The notes beneath the pieces are model-generated. The model was not told where the DNA came from. It did no database searches and saw only the letters and a list, made by a program, of their open reading frames with translations. A program made the translations under genes and the position numbers. 64,000 bases of DNA from Bacteroidia bacterium (GTDB lineage: Bacteria > Bacteroidota > Bacteroidia > Bacteroidales > VadinHA17), in contig JAPLDX010000056.1 of the NCBI GenBank assembly GCA_026391215.1, positions 32,001 through 96,000 of the forward strand, given 5' to 3'. The stretch's first letter is position 1. Every line of letters starts with the position of its first letter. Below, piece after piece: positions 278 through 52,377 of this stretch.

Positions 278-1488
278 TGACATCCGTAAATAAATTTCTC
301 TCAAATTCAGGAAAGAGCATGAAACGCTCTGTCATAAGAGAAATCCTTAAAAACCTTCAAAATCCTGAAATGATCTCTTTTGCGGGTGGGCTTCCTGCTC
401 CTGAGACATTCCCTGTAGAGGAACTGAAGGAAATAACACTCGAGGTTCTGGAAAAAGATGGGGCAAGCGCACTGCAGTACGGGACTACTGAAGGTGATAC
501 GCTCCTCCGTAAAATGCTGGTCGAAAAGCACAAAAGAGACGGATTGGATTTAAGTATTGATAATATTATCATAACCACAGGATCGCAGCAAGCCCTGGAT
601 CTTATTGGAAGAATATTTGTTGACAGTGGTGATTATGTTCTATGCGGACTTCCTTCATACCTGGGCGGCCTGAATGCTTTTTCTGTATATGGGGCAATGC
701 TGAAAGGCATATCACTTGATGAGAAAGGCATGAAACCGGATGAACTTGAGAATACTATCATAAACCTGAAGGAGCTTGGCAAAAAGATCAAATTCTTATA
801 TATCATACCTGATTTTCAGAATCCTGCGGGGATCACAATTCCGGAAGAAAGAAGGGTGAAAATAATTGAAATAGCAGAAAAGTATGACATCCTGATAGTT
901 GAAGATAGCCCTTACCGTGATATACGTTTCAGCGGTGAGTCTCAGCCATTAATGTACAAGCTGGATAAAACAGGAAGAGTAATAACTTTATGTACCTTCT
1001 CTAAGATTTTTGCCCCGGGATTCAGGGTAGGATGGATAGTAGGACATCCTGAAATACTCGACAAAATAGTAATGGCAAAACAAACGGCCGACCTCTGCAC
1101 ATCTGCATTTGTTCAAAAGGTCATTGCCCGTTATCTTGAAAAAGGGTTGCTGGAAAAAAACCTCAGCAAGACAATTGCTCTTTACAGTGAAAGACGCAAT
1201 CACATGATAAAATGCTTCAGAAAATATATGCCCGCCGGTGTGTCATGGACAGAACCGGAAGGCGGTTTGTTCCTGTTCGTGACCCTGCCTCAGGGAATTG
1301 ATACTGAAAGAGTCTTCAAGAAGGCCATAGAGAAAAATGTTGCTTTTGTATCAGGATCAACATTTTTTTGCAATGATTCAGGGCATAATACCATGCGCAT
1401 GAACTTTTCATATTCTAAACCTGAAGTAATTGATGAAGGGATTAAACGTCTTGCATTGGTGATTGAAGAAGAAATAACCGGCAGATAA
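274..1488 (+). CDS. PLP-dependent aminotransferase, class I/II (LysN/ARO8-like, no HTH)
   Basis: [32 protein letters not shown] and [14 protein letters not shown] (PLP lysine) motifs. Confidence 0.92.
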
Positions 1489-1493
1489 TATCC

Positions 1494-3137
1494 ATGGAAC
1501 TCTCAATCATCATTGTCAGCTACAATGTAAGGCATTTCCTTGAACAATGTCTTCTTTCAGTCCGGAAAGCATCAGAGAATATTGACTCTGAGATATTTGT
1601 CGTTGATAATAACTCAACAGACGGTTCATGCTCAATGGTAAGCAGCGAATTCCGTGAAGTAAGGCTGATAATGAACCATGAAAACAGAGGATTTGCCGCT
1701 GCAAATAACCAGGCATTAAAGATAGCAGCAGGCAGGTTTCTCCTGATCCTCAACCCTGATACCATAGTAGAAGGGGACACTTTCAGAAAATGCATCGATT
1801 TCATGGATAGCCACACGGATGCCGGGATTGTCGGAGTAAGGATGATAGATGGGAAAGGCCGATTCCTTCCTGAATCAAAAAGAGGAATACCCACACCTGA
1901 AACAGCTTTCTTCAAGTTAATGGGATTTTCAAAACTGTTCCCCAAATCGGAGCGGTTTAACAGGTACTATCTCGGGCATCTTGACAATACGAAAACATCG
2001 AAGGCTGATATAATTTCAGGCGCTTTTATGTTTCTCCGTCGGGAGGCATTCCTCAAAACAGGTCTGCTGGATGAAGAATTCTTTATGCATGGTGAAGATA
2101 TAGATTACTCCTACAGGGTTTTGCAGCAAGGATACTGTAATTATTATTTCCCCGGGACAAATATCCTGCATTACAAGGGAGAAAGTACGAAAAAGGAGGA
2201 TCTTAATGTCTTTATTGCCCTCCATAAGGCCATGATAATATTTGTCAAGAAGCACTTAAGCGACGGGAAATTTAAAAAATACATCTTCCCTATAAAGATT
2301 GCAATAATATTAAGGGCAGGATTATCATTATTAAGAAGATTCATGAGAAGGGCTTTCCTCCCTATCTCGGATGTCATCCTGATCTACCTTTTTTACCGGA
2401 TTATAGCCTCATTCTGGGGAACATATAAATTCGGAGCAGGATATATTTTCCCTGCTATACTCCCGGAAATTATTGTACCAGCTTATACAATTATCATTCT
2501 CCTTTCAATCGCATTATTATCAGGGTACAAAATTCCGTCCAAGACAGAAAATGCAGCAACGGGAATACTGACAGGAACTATGCTAATTCTTGTCATCTAT
2601 GCCCTCCTCCCTTTAAGCCTGATGTTCTCAAGGGCAATAATCATTTTTGGAGGACTGGCTTCACTTCTTATTATACCTTTATGGAGACTGCTTACTTCAC
2701 TTATCTTTCCTGGCATTGCCGATAATCCATTTTCAAAAGCCAGAAGAACTATTGTTGTCGCCGAAAGTGAAGAATATTCAAGGGTAATGAATCTGCTCTC
2801 ATCAACAGGAATCAAAAACAAAATTGCCGGAAGAGTCAGCCTTGATAATGATGATATGAAGGAGGAAGTGCTGGGGTATGTTGAACAACTGCGAGAAGTA
2901 ATAAGGATCAACAAGATCAAGGAAGTGATATTCACTACGAACAAAATGACTGCAGCTCAGATAATTGATTCCATGCATCTTATATCAGATCTTAATGTTA
3001 CTATCCGTATCGCCTCAGTAGGTGAAAAATACATTTTCGGGAGCAGGTACGTTAATCCTGAAAATGATCTGATCTCATTAAGCCGTCCGGTCCTTAGAAA
3101 AAGAATATGGACCTGGTTCAGGAATCTGTATAAATAA
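1494..3137 (+). CDS. Glycosyltransferase family 2 with membrane segments and C-terminal Rossmann-like domain
   Basis: LSIIIVSYN, VVDNNSTDGS, NRGFAAANN, LNPDT, FFMHGEDID; several hydrophobic helices in the C-terminal half. Confidence 0.9.
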   Translation: MELSIIIVSYNVRHFLEQCLLSVRKASENIDSEIFVVDNNSTDGSCSMVSSEFREVRLIMNHENRGFAAANNQALKIAAGRFLLILNPDTIVEGDTFRKCIDFMDSHTDAGIVGVRMIDGKGRFLPESKRGIPTPETAFFKLMGFSKLFPKSERFNRYYLGHLDNTKTSKADIISGAFMFLRREAFLKTGLLDEEFFMHGEDIDYSYRVLQQGYCNYYFPGTNILHYKGESTKKEDLNVFIALHKAMIIFVKKHLSDGKFKKYIFPIKIAIILRAGLSLLRRFMRRAFLPISDVILIYLFYRIIASFWGTYKFGAGYIFPAILPEIIVPAYTIIILLSIALLSGYKIPSKTENAATGILTGTMLILVIYALLPLSLMFSRAIIIFGGLASLLIIPLWRLLTSLIFPGIADNPFSKARRTIVVAESEEYSRVMNLLSSTGIKNKIAGRVSLDNDDMKEEVLGYVEQLREVIRINKIKEVIFTTNKMTAAQIIDSMHLISDLNVTIRIASVGEKYIFGSRYVNPENDLISLSRPVLRKRIWTWFRNLYK

Positions 3138-3165
3138 TTGATTCAGATTCCTTCCGACAATTCAT

Positions 3166-20924: not shown

Positions 20925-21013
20925 GGAGAGATGGCAGAGCGGTCGAATGCGGCGGTCTCGAAAACCGTTGTCCTGCTTACGCGGGACCGGGGGTTCGAAT
21001 CCCCCTCTCTCCG
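20925..21013 (+). tRNA. trnS: tRNA-Ser(CGA)
   Basis: GGAGAGA/TCTCTCC acceptor stem with G discriminator; anticodon arm GCGGT-CT-CGA-AA-ACCGT; long variable arm; GGTTCGAATCC T-arm; CCA not encoded. Confidence 0.97.
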
Positions 21014-21186
21014 CAAAACTTTAATGAACCCCGCGAACGCGGGGTTGTTTATTTGACCGAAGCCCCATTAAAAGCTTGCTTTTATAAGGGGCTGAAGGGA
21101 AAATAAATAGACTCGTAAGGGTTCATTAAAACTTTGCTGGTATCCACCAGGGGATCACACCTGAACGGAGTGAGGGTGTAATCCCC
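21013..21186 (+). ncRNA. tRNA-Ser-linked multi-stem structured element, copy A
   Basis: Homologous to 49772-49940 (-) with compensatory changes in three stems; whether it acts as RNA or DNA is unknown. Confidence 0.65.
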
Positions 21187-21197
21187 TTTTTATATTA

Positions 21198-21283
21198 CGC
21201 CCCTTCAGGGCTAACAATCATTTATTAGCCTCCTGCCACCGGCGGTTGCCGGTGGTTATTCAAATTATGCCCTTTCAGGGCTT
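21198..21283. repeat. REP-like doublet GCCC(C/T)TTCAGGGCT flanking a GC hairpin
   Basis: GCCCCTTCAGGGCT and GCCCTTTCAGGGCT in direct orientation around CCACCGGC-ggtt-GCCGGTGG. Confidence 0.65.
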
Positions 21284-21425
21284 ATTGTATTTTGGTTTTG
21301 CCAGCCTTCTCCATAGGATCGTGAGCCCCGGATGGTACCTCTTTTTTCAACATTTTATCAGAGTGGCTCCTTAGTTTAGAATAGCTTGTTATCTTCGTAA
21401 ATTAATGTAATAAATAATCTAAAGC

Positions 21426-22658
21426 ATGGGACTCAGAGGCCGGCTTATCATAATGAACTTCCTCCAGTTCTTTATCTGGGGATCGTGGTTGCTAACCATC
21501 GGGGCATATTGGTTTCAGAACAAAAACTGGTCAGGAACCGATTTCGGAGCTATCTTTTCAACAATGGGACTGGCTTCACTCTTCATGCCGGCCATTGCCG
21601 GGATCATTGCCGACAGGTGGGTCAATGCCGAAAGGGTGTATGGCATCTTTCACATTGCAGGTGCCGTCCTGCTTACACTAATTCCGTCCATCACTAATCC
21701 TGACACCTTTTTCTGGATTCTGCTGCTTACGATGATGTTCTACATGCCCACCCTGGCTCTGGCTATCACGGTGGCATACAGCTCTATGAAAAAGAGTGGT
21801 ATGGATATAATAAAGGATTACCCGCCGGTGAGGGTCTGGGGTACGATCGGCTTCATAGTGGCGCTGTGGGTGGTAAGCCTGCTGGGCTTTGAAACCTCAC
21901 CCTTGCAGTTCTATGTTGCGGCTGCCGCCTCTCTCCTGCTTGGTCTCTATGCCTTTACCCTCCCAAAGTGTCCGCCACTGGGCAGGGGACACAAGAAGAA
22001 ACTGGCAGAAGAGCTGGGTCTCAATGCCTTCAGACTTTTCAAAAGTTCCAAAATGGCCATCTTTTTCATCTTCGCCATGCTCCTGGGCGGTGCTCTGCAG
22101 CTGACCAACGCCTACGGCGACACTTTTCTGCACGATTTTGCAGACATACCGGAGTATAAAGACCTTCTTGCCGTAAGGTATCCAGCCATAATAATGTCAG
22201 TCTCACAGATCTCCGAAACCCTCTTCATTCTTACCATTCCCTTTTTCCTGAAAAAATTCGGGATAAAGAAGGTGATGCTGATGAGCATGGTGGCTTGGAT
22301 TCTCCGTTTCGGCCTGTTCGGATTCGGAAATCCCGCCGAAGGGCTCTGGCTGATCATCCTCTCATGCATCATTTACGGTATGGCCTTTGATTTCTTCAAT
22401 ATCTCGGGTTCCCTCTTCGTTGAGACCCAGTGTACTCCTGACATACGTGCCAGCGGCCAGGGCCTGTTCATGATGATGACTAACGGCTTCGGTGCTTTCC
22501 TTGGCAGCAGGATAAGCGGGATCGTGATTGACAAATACTTTACCCTGGGAGGCGGCGTATTCGACTGGAAGGGGATCTGGTTCACCTTTGCGGGTTATGC
22601 CCTGGTGGTGGTAATCCTCTTCGTCATACTCTTCAGGCATAAGCATGTTCAGAAGTAA
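21426..22658 (+). CDS. nupG: Nucleoside:H+ symporter (NHS family MFS)
   Basis: MNFLQFFIWGSW, GIIADRW, YPPVRVWGTIGF, SQISE, YGMAFDFFNISG, RASGQG. Confidence 0.92.
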   Translation: MGLRGRLIIMNFLQFFIWGSWLLTIGAYWFQNKNWSGTDFGAIFSTMGLASLFMPAIAGIIADRWVNAERVYGIFHIAGAVLLTLIPSITNPDTFFWILLLTMMFYMPTLALAITVAYSSMKKSGMDIIKDYPPVRVWGTIGFIVALWVVSLLGFETSPLQFYVAAAASLLLGLYAFTLPKCPPLGRGHKKKLAEELGLNAFRLFKSSKMAIFFIFAMLLGGALQLTNAYGDTFLHDFADIPEYKDLLAVRYPAIIMSVSQISETLFILTIPFFLKKFGIKKVMLMSMVAWILRFGLFGFGNPAEGLWLIILSCIIYGMAFDFFNISGSLFVETQCTPDIRASGQGLFMMMTNGFGAFLGSRISGIVIDKYFTLGGGVFDWKGIWFTFAGYALVVVILFVILFRHKHVQK

Positions 22659-49463: not shown

Positions 49464-49500
49464 AATGAATTACTATCAGGAGACAAACGTTTTAACAGGT

Positions 49501-49619
49501 GAGAGGGGGTTACTCCCTCACTTCGTTTGGGCATGATCCCCTGCGAGTAACCAGCAAAGCCAAAATAAACCCTTACGGGTTATTGTCTATTTTACTTTCA
49601 GCCCCTTCAGAAAGCAAGC
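49501..49619 (-). repeat. tRNA-Ser-linked element, copy C (5'-truncated)
   Basis: 49554-49619 matches 49813-49878 at 65 of 66 nt; ends in GGGGATC...AACCCCCTCTC, resembling a tRNA 3' end. Confidence 0.85.
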
Positions 49620-49656
49620 ATAAGTGATTATTGTATATAATTGTATAACTGCAAAT

Positions 49657-49760
49657 TACACCCCCTCCTTACGAAGTAGAGGGCTGAGCGTGAAGAAATA
49701 GCCCGGTGGGCTATTTTAGTGAAGAGCCGGTTTGCAGCGGAGGGGGCTGGGGGGTGGGTA
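49657..49760. repeat. Composite GC-rich REP-like palindromic element
   Basis: AAATAGCCC-ggt-GGGCTATTT hairpin (49696-49716) nested between CCCCCTCC and GGAGGGGG arms. Confidence 0.55.
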
Positions 49761-49771
49761 CATATGATTTC

Positions 49772-50026
<255 letters not shown>

Positions 50027-50094: not shown

Positions 50095-52377
50095 TTATTT
50101 CAGCCCTTTGAACGTATCAATGACCTGTCTGAAATTCTCCAGTGTCTCCTCATCAAAATCAGTTAACTTGATCACTCCCGATTTGACTTCCGCCAGGAAT
50201 TTTGAGAACATGAAATTACGCGGCATATCCTTTTCAGATACGTACTCAGAGTTGGCAATTGTTATCCCTTGCCTGTTCTTTAAAATAAAATTCTTGAAAT
50301 CAAGAGTCGATAAAAGATCCTCCGCATTATAAAATGTTCCAGGTATGCTTATTATCATGTTGCGTCCGCTGTTGTCAGTTTTAAATACTGTCTCCTTTAA
50401 AACTTCTCTCATTTTATTCTCCTGCTCATTTTCAAAAAGAAGGACAGCAAAATCGAGTCCCCATCCCATGAGGATATTGCATAACAGCGGTATGGAAGAG
50501 ACATTTGTGGAAGGAATTACACTGATCTTCCCCCTGAATCCGGTAAGAATGATAATTGCGTTCAGTATATAAAATGATCCGGTATCGTTAACGATCAGAT
50601 TGAATTTCTTTGATGAGAATCCTTCACTGGCTGCCGGATTGCCGAGTATGCTCTGCAATGGAGAAAGAGTATCAGGGGAGGCTGCGGAAAGCTGAAAAGG
50701 ATCAAGTATACGGGTAGCGCTCCTGAGACTGTCAAGGTCATCCCTCTGTGCAGCCAGCACCCGGTGAAGCTTATTGATCTCTACAAGATGAGGAGAATGA
50801 GTAGTATAGATAACCTGGATCGTGTCCTTTATATCCTCGAATACCTTTAGTACATCCTCCTGTGCCCTGGCATGGAGACTCACGCCCGGTTCATCCACAA
50901 GCAGCACCATCTGCTTGTTTATATTTGCCGCTGCCTTAAGCTCCATATAGAACGATAAAAACCATCGTACTCCACGGCTCCTCTGCTTTGGATAGAGCCT
51001 CTCCCCTTCATCCTTGATCCAGAATTCGAGATATGGTTTGCCCGCTTTGTCCCCGTAAGCAGCGCTGTAATGATCCAGCTCAAACTGAATGTGTATCTTG
51101 TTATTGCGTCCTATTGATTGCTGCCAGAAGTCCTGGAAATTGCGGGTAAGCGTATTATTCAAATTCTCAATTTTCTGTTTCAGGATACGGCTGGAAGGCT
51201 GCTGGAAAAAGGAATAGTCAAGCTGTGCTATGGAGAGAAAATTACGGGCAGCTTTATAACCTTCAACCTGGTCATTGCCTGTGATTATATCCTCCATATC
51301 GATCCTGTTGGGCAAAAGGCTTCCGAAATCTTCAAACAATTCGAAAACCGGACAATACTCAAAATATTTTCTGCCAAGTATCTCGCTGTTATACTGCGAT
51401 TTATAAGACTGTATTATTTCATTGACCTTTTTTTCCGCTTCTTCCTCTGTGCTCCCTGCCATAATATAACCTGACAAAGCTATGTGTCTGTCGAGCTCAG
51501 CTTTTTTAAGATCCCTTTCACTCCTTGTTTTCCTGTAATCATTAAGGGTGCTTCTCCATTCCTGGTCGTCCTCATCATCAACAGGTCTCATTAGCAGTGT
51601 CATCTTCTGATGCCTCTCCTCAAGCTTGACTGATAATTCTGCCAGATGGTTATCAAGCATTATGAATTTGTCAAATAATTTATGCCAGGTTTCGCCGGCT
51701 TTTTTCATGGATTGTTTTCCAAGGAGATCAGCAGATATTTGCTCCTTCTTTCTTCTTATCTCTGCCAGTTGATTCTTTAAATCCGCAGTCAGACCGTCCG
51801 TCACAGAATCTGATTCAGCTGTTTTCTTCCCAAACCACAAGAAGCCTTTCGACTTGCTTTCATGAGGCTGTATCTTTGATTTTATTTCTGATTCCTGAGC
51901 TGCAAGTCCGGTAAGTTTCTTTTCGTTTTCGCTGATAATGCTTAACTCCTGTTCAAGCTTGACAGTGACATCTCCAAGATAGATCCTCCATGCATCCTCA
52001 AGGGAATCAAGATACTGGCTTATCTCCCCGCTGACAATGATGACCGAGGACAGATCGGCGATCCATACCCTGGTAAGCTCAATATGGGTAAGCCCCGAGA
52101 GAAGCTCCTTAAGCTCTGTCCCTGGATTATCAGTAACCTTCAGAAGCCACCCCTCAGGAATGCTGAACCGGCAGCTGACTTCCGGGAGCGAGAGGTCGCT
52201 GCGCAGAATATCCTCAGAAATTATCCCGGTATAAAACACTTTCATTGCTTCAAGAACGGATGTTTTTCCCGATTCATTCTGCCCAATAAGACAGGTAATA
52301 TTATCGGGTGACAGCGATTGCCATCCAGTATCGACTATTGAACGGAAATTCCTGATCCTGAAAGCTGTAAGCTTCAT
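50095..52377 (-). CDS. OLD/AAA_15-type ABC ATPase with coiled-coil insert and degenerate TOPRIM-like C-terminus
   Basis: IRNFRSI, Walker A GQNESGKTS, signature RSRG, Walker B LLVDEP, SLH, H-loop TTHSP. Confidence 0.82.
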   Translation of the reverse strand: MKLTAFRIRNFRSIVDTGWQSLSPDNITCLIGQNESGKTSVLEAMKVFYTGIISEDILRSDLSLPEVSCRFSIPEGWLLKVTDNPGTELKELLSGLTHIELTRVWIADLSSVIIVSGEISQYLDSLEDAWRIYLGDVTVKLEQELSIISENEKKLTGLAAQESEIKSKIQPHESKSKGFLWFGKKTAESDSVTDGLTADLKNQLAEIRRKKEQISADLLGKQSMKKAGETWHKLFDKFIMLDNHLAELSVKLEERHQKMTLLMRPVDDEDDQEWRSTLNDYRKTRSERDLKKAELDRHIALSGYIMAGSTEEEAEKKVNEIIQSYKSQYNSEILGRKYFEYCPVFELFEDFGSLLPNRIDMEDIITGNDQVEGYKAARNFLSIAQLDYSFFQQPSSRILKQKIENLNNTLTRNFQDFWQQSIGRNNKIHIQFELDHYSAAYGDKAGKPYLEFWIKDEGERLYPKQRSRGVRWFLSFYMELKAAANINKQMVLLVDEPGVSLHARAQEDVLKVFEDIKDTIQVIYTTHSPHLVEINKLHRVLAAQRDDLDSLRSATRILDPFQLSAASPDTLSPLQSILGNPAASEGFSSKKFNLIVNDTGSFYILNAIIILTGFRGKISVIPSTNVSSIPLLCNILMGWGLDFAVLLFENEQENKMREVLKETVFKTDNSGRNMIISIPGTFYNAEDLLSTLDFKNFILKNRQGITIANSEYVSEKDMPRNFMFSKFLAEVKSGVIKLTDFDEETLENFRQVIDTFKGLK

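Follow-up and report, generated by a model that had tools for sequence, protein, structure and literature searches.

Quasi-palindromic units at the 3' ends of Bacteroidia tRNA genes and their possible origin as att-like DNA insertions

Among the described systems closest to the units reported here, cis-mobilizable elements accrete in tandem, integron attC sites and the attP site of phage CTX act as folded substrates, and ERIC and Correia sequences count among the other short palindromic intergenic repeats. In the phylum of our source genome, the 3' end of tRNA-Ser is a proven integrase target, that of IntN2 of NBU2 according to the account in PMC8816746. Template switching during replication makes quasi-palindromes more perfect, as stated in PMC7202029.

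The window, which is the whole 64,000-nucleotide stretch of Bacteroidia DNA analysed here, holds two tRNA genes, both tRNA-Ser by ARAGORN and Rfam, and behind each lies a structured unit that is real and belongs to a widespread, apparently undescribed family. Rfam 15 returned only tRNA matches, with nothing over 21014-21186 or 49772-49939 either at the gathering score or at E values up to 10, so that the match to a described family for which the initial annotation had allowed did not occur; among titles and abstract openings, the literature contained no description of such units that we could find. Judging from sequence, we give a probability of about 0.5 to the reading that the family consists of small (about 120-190 bp), gene-less, quasi-palindromic DNA units that sit at Bacteroidia tRNA 3' ends as att-like insertions. 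Mobile or duplicating DNA is the likelier account of them, ahead of a working RNA.

Anatomy of the units in the window

One unit (copy A) follows tRNA-Ser(CGA), a second (copy B) follows tRNA-Ser(GCT), and half of a third (copy C) lies beyond copy B. The discriminator G of tRNA-Ser(CGA), at 21013, is at the same time base 1 of the closing stem of copy A. The features, in window positions, are as follows.

20925-21013, + strand: tRNA-Ser(CGA) (ARAGORN; Rfam tRNA, 58.6 bits)
21013-21029, + strand: copy A, 5' strand of the closing stem P1, which is the tRNA trailer (sequence, fold; P1 pairs covarying, 12/15)
21029-21054, + strand: copy A, P2, a GC-rich hairpin followed by a T-rich run (sequence, fold; putative terminator-like role)
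21047-21109, + strand: copy A, P3, in which the T-run pairs with an A-run, then a conserved core hairpin (sequence, fold)
21112-21121, + strand: copy A, P4, a small hairpin with a GTAA loop (sequence, fold)
21121-21137, + strand: copy A, 3' strand of P1, the anti-trailer (sequence, fold, covariation)
21138-21149, + strand: copy A, linker of 12 nt (sequence)
21150-21186, + strand: copy A, pseudo-T-arm hairpin (GGGGATCA...TAATCCCC), then a T-run (sequence, fold; the hairpin type recurs across Bacteroidia)
21187-21330, + strand: repeat modules 3' of copy A, two CCCTTCAGGGC-type boxes around a GC hairpin (sequence)
49940-50026, - strand: tRNA-Ser(GCT) (ARAGORN, Rfam)
49813-49940, - strand: copy B, full P1-P4 unit (sequence, fold; covariance model, 121.4 bits)
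49772-49812, - strand: copy B, linker and pseudo-T-arm hairpin (sequence, fold)
49620-49771, - strand: spacer between copies B and C, with one end of a separate palindromic repeat (ATGTACCCACCCC..., CCCTCT/AGAGGG-type hairpin; genome count)
49554-49619, - strand: copy C, right half only, from the apex loop through the A-run and P4 to the 3' strand of P1 (near-identical to the right half of copy B)
49497-49553, - strand: copy C, linker and pseudo-T-arm hairpin, the hairpin at 49505-49541 (by-eye comparison with copy B)

Counted from the discriminator base, each of the two full copies comprises a four-way fold of about 125 nt and a hairpin tail of about 50 nt, and the 17-bp closing stem of copy A has its equivalent in copy B, where 49940-49924 pairs with 49829-49813. 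The apex of P3 in copy A reads AAAAG-CTTG-CTTTT, with AAGCTT at 21072-21077. Folded as RNA, copies A and B have energies of -77.1 and -89.5 kcal/mol (z = -7.1 and -10.9), and none of 200 shuffles was as stable. The initial annotation had described homologous trailers running from the discriminator base of both tRNA-Ser genes, and this holds, with 80% mean column identity in the alignment; so does the identical tRNA 3' stretch common to both loci, the last 32 nt up to CCGCAAA. All the stems that it named were found again, namely, the closing stem, the hairpin CCCCGC/GCGGGG that becomes CCCCAC/GTGGGG, the arm AAAAGC-TT-GCTTTT that becomes GAAAGC-TT-GCTTTC, and the GTAA hairpin, although the GTAA tetraloop, present in the window copies, is not kept family-wide, where GAA and GNA triloops dominate.

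A DNA contig from the source freshwater-sediment metagenome matches 20988-22000 without any difference. In another DNA contig, from run X1, position 21102 is joined to 21190 with omission of 87 nt, which are the right half of copy A from the A-run to the pseudo-T-arm, a joint that is unreliable because its shorter side measures 23 nt. The contigs of one metatranscriptome (contigs only) cover the tRNA alone, one of them extending to 21031. Neighbouring genes of copies A and B encode a T9SS-sorted protein, a nucleoside symporter, an AAA ATPase, and a caspase-domain protein, with no mobility genes among these window neighbours. The CCCTTCAGGGC-type module that follows copy A is also found 3' of two units of the genus outside the source genome, behind tRNA-Ser(CGA) and tRNA-Ser(GGA) (L007 and L026).

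Copy C, listed at first as a further copy, is indeed related but amounts to the right half of a unit only (49505-49619, - strand); its left border falls exactly in the apex loop, and by eye a decayed repeat of the tRNA 3' end follows its hairpin at about 49497-49511 (- strand). The separate palindromic repeat in the spacer occurs at 49 places in the source genome, versus 0.8 expected. Its layout is ATGTAC[C/T]CACCCC followed by a CCCCCTCTCT...AGAGAGGGGG-type hairpin, and it often stands in convergent pairs, 120-180 nt apart, that resemble two MITE ends.

Across the family, the order of parts is trailer, P2, P3 (apex GAAAG-CTTG-CTTTC), A-run, P4 (GNA or GNRA loop), anti-trailer, C-rich linker, and pseudo-T-arm. 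The last of these repeats the T-stem of the host tRNA, and a mini-hairpin replaces the central part of the T-loop; it reads GGGATCA...TAATCCC: T-stem, ATC, mini-hairpin (often CC-GAA-GG or GC-GAA-GC), AAT, and 3' T-stem strand. The stem varies with the host tRNA (Ser, Val, Asp, Gln, Leu, and Arg), and a mismatch of C opposite A within it is conserved.

Distribution across tRNA genes and genomes

In the source genome, 39 tRNA genes were called, of which four are tRNA-Ser. On a different contig, BLAST located a third full copy, which follows tRNA-Ser(GGA), and a covariance model (R1) built from 16 copies of the genus added diverged units behind tRNA-Ser(TGA) and tRNA-Asp. All four tRNA-Ser genes and the tRNA-Asp gene are followed by a unit (about five units, every one behind a tRNA gene); the tRNA-His gene is followed by the left half of a unit only, and a second, partial unit behind tRNA-Ser(TGA) keeps only the right part. 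A loose regular expression for the pseudo-T hairpin matched this genome 248 times, seven of the matches lying beside the four tRNA-Ser genes; the others look like chance, and three that were checked lie within coding sequence. The plain tRNA terminators of the source genome are long, perfect A-tract/hairpin/T-tract palindromes, e.g., that of tRNA-Pro(TGG) (C59:5822-5950), and the closing stem of a unit behind tRNA-Pro in another locus (L031) is of the same sequence type.

Building a covariance model and searching Bacteroidota genomes with it, as the initial annotation had proposed, recovered the unit well beyond the window. The model matched 134/151 genomes in the genus sample, 143/151 in the family sample (all 20 of 20 genera), 16/149 from other families of the order, and 21/150 in the class sample, nearly always directly 3' of a tRNA gene; laxer filters brought out significant copies in three of five re-searched "non-carriers" of the genus. 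The claim of two tRNA-Ser loci was thus correct and too narrow, the actual scope taking in all four tRNA-Ser genes and tRNA-Asp in this genome, other tRNAs, and the class Bacteroidia. Within the family, units occupy syntenic tRNA loci, and 40 of 40 further copies fetched directly follow tRNA-Ser; outside the family, other orders included, units of the same build stand behind Ser, Arg, Val, Asp, Met, and His genes. Of 13 class-level loci, nine have a tRNA called adjacent to the unit, and the other four have a tRNA 3' end at its border. One genus genome, G065 (92% complete), has four tRNA-Ser genes with plain trailers, and no unit was found in it.

A public genome collection contains at least 121 stretches with one exact 19-nt word of the tail hairpin; by record titles, among the matches listed, they belong to Bacteroidales, Flavobacteriales, Chitinophagales, Cytophagales, and Sphingobacteriia, and the carriers include Arenibacter palladensis DSM 17539, Compostibacter hankyongensis JCM 17664, Rasiella sp. 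SM2506, and Flavobacterium isolates. We fetched 80 of these loci, and 56 have a same-strand tRNA upstream at a median distance of 139 nt (Ser 31, Pro 9, Leu 7, Arg 4, Cys 3, Gln 1, and Tyr 1). When genomes were drawn evenly over the phylum, 2/401 contained this exact pseudo-T word, a count that understates the family because the source genome itself uses other loop variants. Phage and plasmid collections matched only the tRNA 3' end (query positions 2-41), with the exception of one plasmid row (query 4-70) that reaches about 40 nt into the trailer at 77.6% identity. Prevotella sp. oral taxon 299 and Persicobacter psychrovividus show plain flanks at their tRNA-Ser loci.

Upstream of tRNA-Ser(GCT) stands an AAA_15/AAA_21 ATPase gene, both in the window (50095-52377, - strand) and in at least nine other genus genomes, and an asparaginase gene stands upstream of tRNA-Ser(GGA) in at least 11 genus genomes. 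Since the downstream genes differ between genomes, the 3' flank of these two tRNA genes is a synteny break point.

Covariation, repeated tRNA ends, and competing readings

The covariation first seen between two copies is strong in a larger alignment. With 16 genus copies aligned by MAFFT, and with 500 shuffles and slid pairings as controls, pairing holds in 94.7% of cells and 29 of 48 pairs have changed on both sides, a number reached by none of the 500 shuffles and compared with 4-11 in the slid controls. Of the 15 pairs of P1, 12 have changed on both sides and none on one side only (wobble), and 97.1% of cells are paired.

Such covariation speaks for a functional structured RNA, a reading that we consider rather unlikely. 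The trailer of a read-through precursor would fold into a four-way junction whose closing helix joins the trailer to an antisense segment, and the product could serve as a stem for processing (a substrate of the RNase III type) or be a stable trailer RNA bearing conserved CUUG and GAA loops. The very stable folds of copies A and B point the same way, as does the presence of units at syntenic loci in nearly all family genomes together with conservation across the class; the syntenic placement (143/151 genomes) also fits a conserved host function. The orientation of the units relative to the tRNA is fixed, and their asymmetric loop words (CTTG; CC-GAA-GG) are kept across orders of the class, the apex loop being CTTG in 69 of 138 distinct copies and the flipped CAAG in three; fixed orientation and conserved loops speak for some strand-specific constraint. 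The loops themselves do not decide between RNA and DNA, for in DNA the GAA mini-hairpins of the d(GCGAAGC) type have exceptional stability, and in RNA CUUG forms a stable tetraloop.

The style of the covariation in P1 is unusual for an RNA. The stem lacks wobble intermediates, and over the 138 copies it contains 1852 Watson-Crick, 29 G:U, and 20 A:C cells, so that G:U is hardly commoner than A:C (p = 0.25). Elsewhere, G:U exceeds A:C about 2:1 (P2, 22:10; P3, 108:60; P4, 10:2), ratios that are soft, given related copies and an alignment fitted to the model. This excess is what selection at the RNA level would give, and it weighs to that extent against an insertion; the model fit and strand-biased deamination can also produce it. 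The order of parts is a further difficulty for a working RNA, in that the terminator-like P2 and its T-run lie upstream of the 3' half that must pair, and terminated transcripts could form neither P1 nor P3. A functional RNA would also sit awkwardly with the absence of any Rfam family and with the lack of the element in G065, which for an insertion indicates that the unit is dispensable in the genus, and it leaves unexplained the repeated tRNA ends, the tandem right halves, the enclosed gene, and the joints at the apex described below.

At 11/71 tRNA loci, an exact repeat of the tRNA 3' end (at least 13 nt) comes directly after the pseudo-T hairpin; a twelfth match, left out of this count, is a real second tRNA. 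Across Bacteroidia, repeats of at least 12 nt are present in 13/56 tRNA-linked loci. The flanking repeats comprise 13-55 nt of the tRNA end and begin at AATCC of the T-loop, placing the break in the T-loop before AATCC, and the host tRNAs at these loci are still called by ARAGORN. The junction word TAATCCCCCTCTCTCCGC was found in 33/212 genus genomes at 51 places (reversed control, 0), and in 24 of 30 fetched loci it lies 3' of tRNA-Ser, roughly 35-260 nt away and mostly at 150-180 nt. Each unit is thus flanked by two tRNA 3' ends, an intact one on its left and, on its right, a copy that has been displaced.

Units also stack. Genome G279 carries three near-identical full units with a period of 168 nt, a tRNA-Val locus carries three stacked units, L211 has five right-half units, and L091 has two different, unrelated units in series; older downstream units are mostly reduced to their right part, as are copy C and the partial unit behind tRNA-Ser(TGA) of the source genome. 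What is left begins either at the apex or at P4, in the latter case with the 3' strand of P1, linker, and pseudo-T-arm. The apex of the core is a recurrent site of rearrangement joints, seen in copy C, in L011 and L021, and behind tRNA-His of the source genome: copy C and L011 start at the apex, and in L021 and behind tRNA-His the separate palindromic repeat adjoins it. In G090, the left and right arms of one unit and two junction repeats of the tRNA-Ser 3' end, 2.86 kb apart, flank a metE gene, and in G140 a transposase gene lies between a unit and a junction repeat, as follows.

L294 (G090:C5:39300-43400), 903-3164, - strand: metE (cobalamin-independent methionine synthase), 753 aa, Meth_synt_1 and Meth_synt_2 domains
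L040 (G140), 2047-3084, + strand: IS5-like transposase (DUF772) between the unit and a junction repeat about 1.6 kb further on

Unit sequences do not track their tRNA locus. Pairs from different genomes that share an anticodon (n = 619) have an identity of 0.52, and those with unlike anticodons (n = 1775) have one of 0.48; within genomes, some pairs reach 0.89-0.96. Short tandem repeats come right after some units (L015, L142, L145, L069, and L306), with periods of 7-12 nt, e.g., GTCCTGA, or made of pseudo-T pieces.

A left arm, an inverted right arm, and a direct repeat amount to X-X'-X, and a second alternative takes this layout literally: replication template switching between the T-arm and terminator palindromes would have produced an inverted triplication in place (X, reverse complement of X, X), trimmed later. 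We hold this to be improbable, and equally so its corollary that quasi-palindrome correction then keeps the arms paired and no mobile unit exists. In its favor, the repeat at a tRNA-Gln locus (L235) spans the tRNA 3' end, trailer, and terminator, the T-loop TTCGAA is itself palindromic, the template-switch mechanism is established (PMC7202029), and inverted triplications by replication error are described in PMC4689423. Against it, shared elements turn up behind several kinds of tRNA and in more than one order, namely, the apex words (AGCTTGCT; CACC-GAA-GGTA), the linker, and the core, which separate in-place events would not produce anew. Moreover, P4 and the reverse complement of P2 differ, also at loci with a fresh repeat (L235, L066, L067, and L069).

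That the unit is nothing but an elaborate bidirectional terminator, or that two trailers are alike by chance, strikes us as very improbable. The first hairpin met on either strand is followed by a T-run (P2 in sense, the complement of P4 in antisense), and plain tRNA terminators of the source genome are already long palindromes of A-tract, hairpin, and T-tract, but neither P1 nor the conserved core nor the pseudo-T hairpin belongs to a terminator, and no antisense terminator is needed at the window copies because the flanking genes are co-directional at both. Chance is excluded by the fold z-scores and the covariation, among other results. A retron ncRNA, a riboswitch or ribozyme, a CRISPR, and an inverton (invertible DNA switch) were dropped, as their defining parts are absent.

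An att-like insertion compared with known systems

Of the two interpretations offered in the initial annotation, a non-autonomous element aimed at the tRNA-Ser 3' sequence fits best, on the strength of the tRNA 3'-end repeats, the tandem stacks, the gene-holding unit, and the joints at the apex; a tRNA-linked noncoding RNA fits less well. Under the preferred reading of an att-like insertion, units would enter at the T-loop or 3' end of a tRNA gene by att-type, probably site-specific recombination, and each insert would bring a new tRNA 3' end, trailer, and terminator and push the old end downstream, as in attL/attR. P2 would then act as the terminator of the host tRNA. New units would enter beside the tRNA, giving tandem stacks in which older units are truncated from the left, and the fragility of the palindrome at its apex may lead to truncations and captures. 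The arms would stay complementary because the recombination substrate must fold (as hairpin or cruciform), because template switching corrects quasi-palindromes, or both; with arms kept paired at the level of DNA, the covariation would need no selection on RNA.

The tRNA-Ser 3' end also serves as an annotated phage attP (a phage collection match). The recombining enzyme would act in trans. The larger version with an integrase that the initial annotation had thought worth seeking did not turn up: a Phage_integrase domain was found in 0/104 flanking ORFs (chosen from 147 ORFs of at least 150 aa), six tyrosine recombinase matches in the source genome lie away from the units, and neither an autonomous version nor an IS with the same ends was found in 1.5-kb flanks or in phage or plasmid collections. 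A circle of about 170 bp is, moreover, very small for double-strand recombination. A more specific proposal, which we regard as unlikely, is that the units are substrates of an undescribed Bacteroidia recombination system that docks at the tRNA T-loop, with serial insertion by a trans-acting enzyme building cassette-like stacks that capture genes such as metE; the modules would perhaps move as folded single strands or minicircles, like attC or CTX attP.

If the units are insertions, many Bacteroidia tRNA genes end in a recurrent self-folding module, and the annotation of 3' flanks, terminators, and att sites changes accordingly; textbook "covariation" can then come from DNA palindromes without RNA function, and the family points to a missing enzyme that recognizes the T-loop region of tRNA genes. 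The NBU2 vectors of Bacteroides genetics dock at the tRNA-Ser 3' end, as given in PMC8816746, and resident units and pseudo-sites could thus affect such tools. If the units are RNA instead, they make up a large new class of tRNA-trailer RNAs.

Two kinds of transcript-level feature share parts of the layout. Like an intrinsic terminator, the unit has a GC hairpin (P2) and a T-rich run directly behind the tRNA, with equivalents in 138 copies, whereas the roughly 130 nt beyond P2 are not needed for termination. Like tRNA 3'-trailer sRNAs such as 3'ETS-leuZ of Escherichia coli, it starts at the tRNA 3' end and would be cotranscribed if P2 were read through; the unit trailer is far longer, structured, and placed after a terminator-like site.

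Structure kept while sequence drifts, the conserved C-opposite-A mismatch in the pseudo-T stem, and arrays with one gene between sites recall integron attC and CTX attP. Compared by eye with the attC consensus, P1 of copies A, B, and D contains no R''/R' core words, no IntI is adjacent, and the platform is a tRNA gene.

MITEs share with the unit terminal inverted repeats (the P1 arms, 15-17 bp) and a short, non-coding, self-complementary, intergenic form with several copies per genome. Unlike MITEs, the units make no short target duplication and do not disperse to unrelated sites, the repeat being 13-55 nt of tRNA end, and, unlike in MITEs and palindromic repeats generally, their terminal inverted repeats differ from copy to copy yet stay paired. 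REP and BIME sequences, as characterized in PMC3733652, are palindromes of 20-40 bp in high copy with a tagged end, as opposed to a unit of 120-190 bp present about five times per genome.

The unit comes nearest to elements that integrate at tRNA genes, such as NBU2 with IntN2 (target in PMC8816746), through insertion at the tRNA 3' part, an intact tRNA, a direct repeat on the far side, tandem accretion, and cargo. It departs from them in its size of about 120-190 bp, in having no integrase inside or adjacent, in being nearly wholly palindromic, and in its copy of the T-arm with a hairpin in the loop. Set beside its closest kinds, namely, tRNA-integrating elements, MITE and REP sequences, and attC sites, the unit is thus without at least one defining feature of each.
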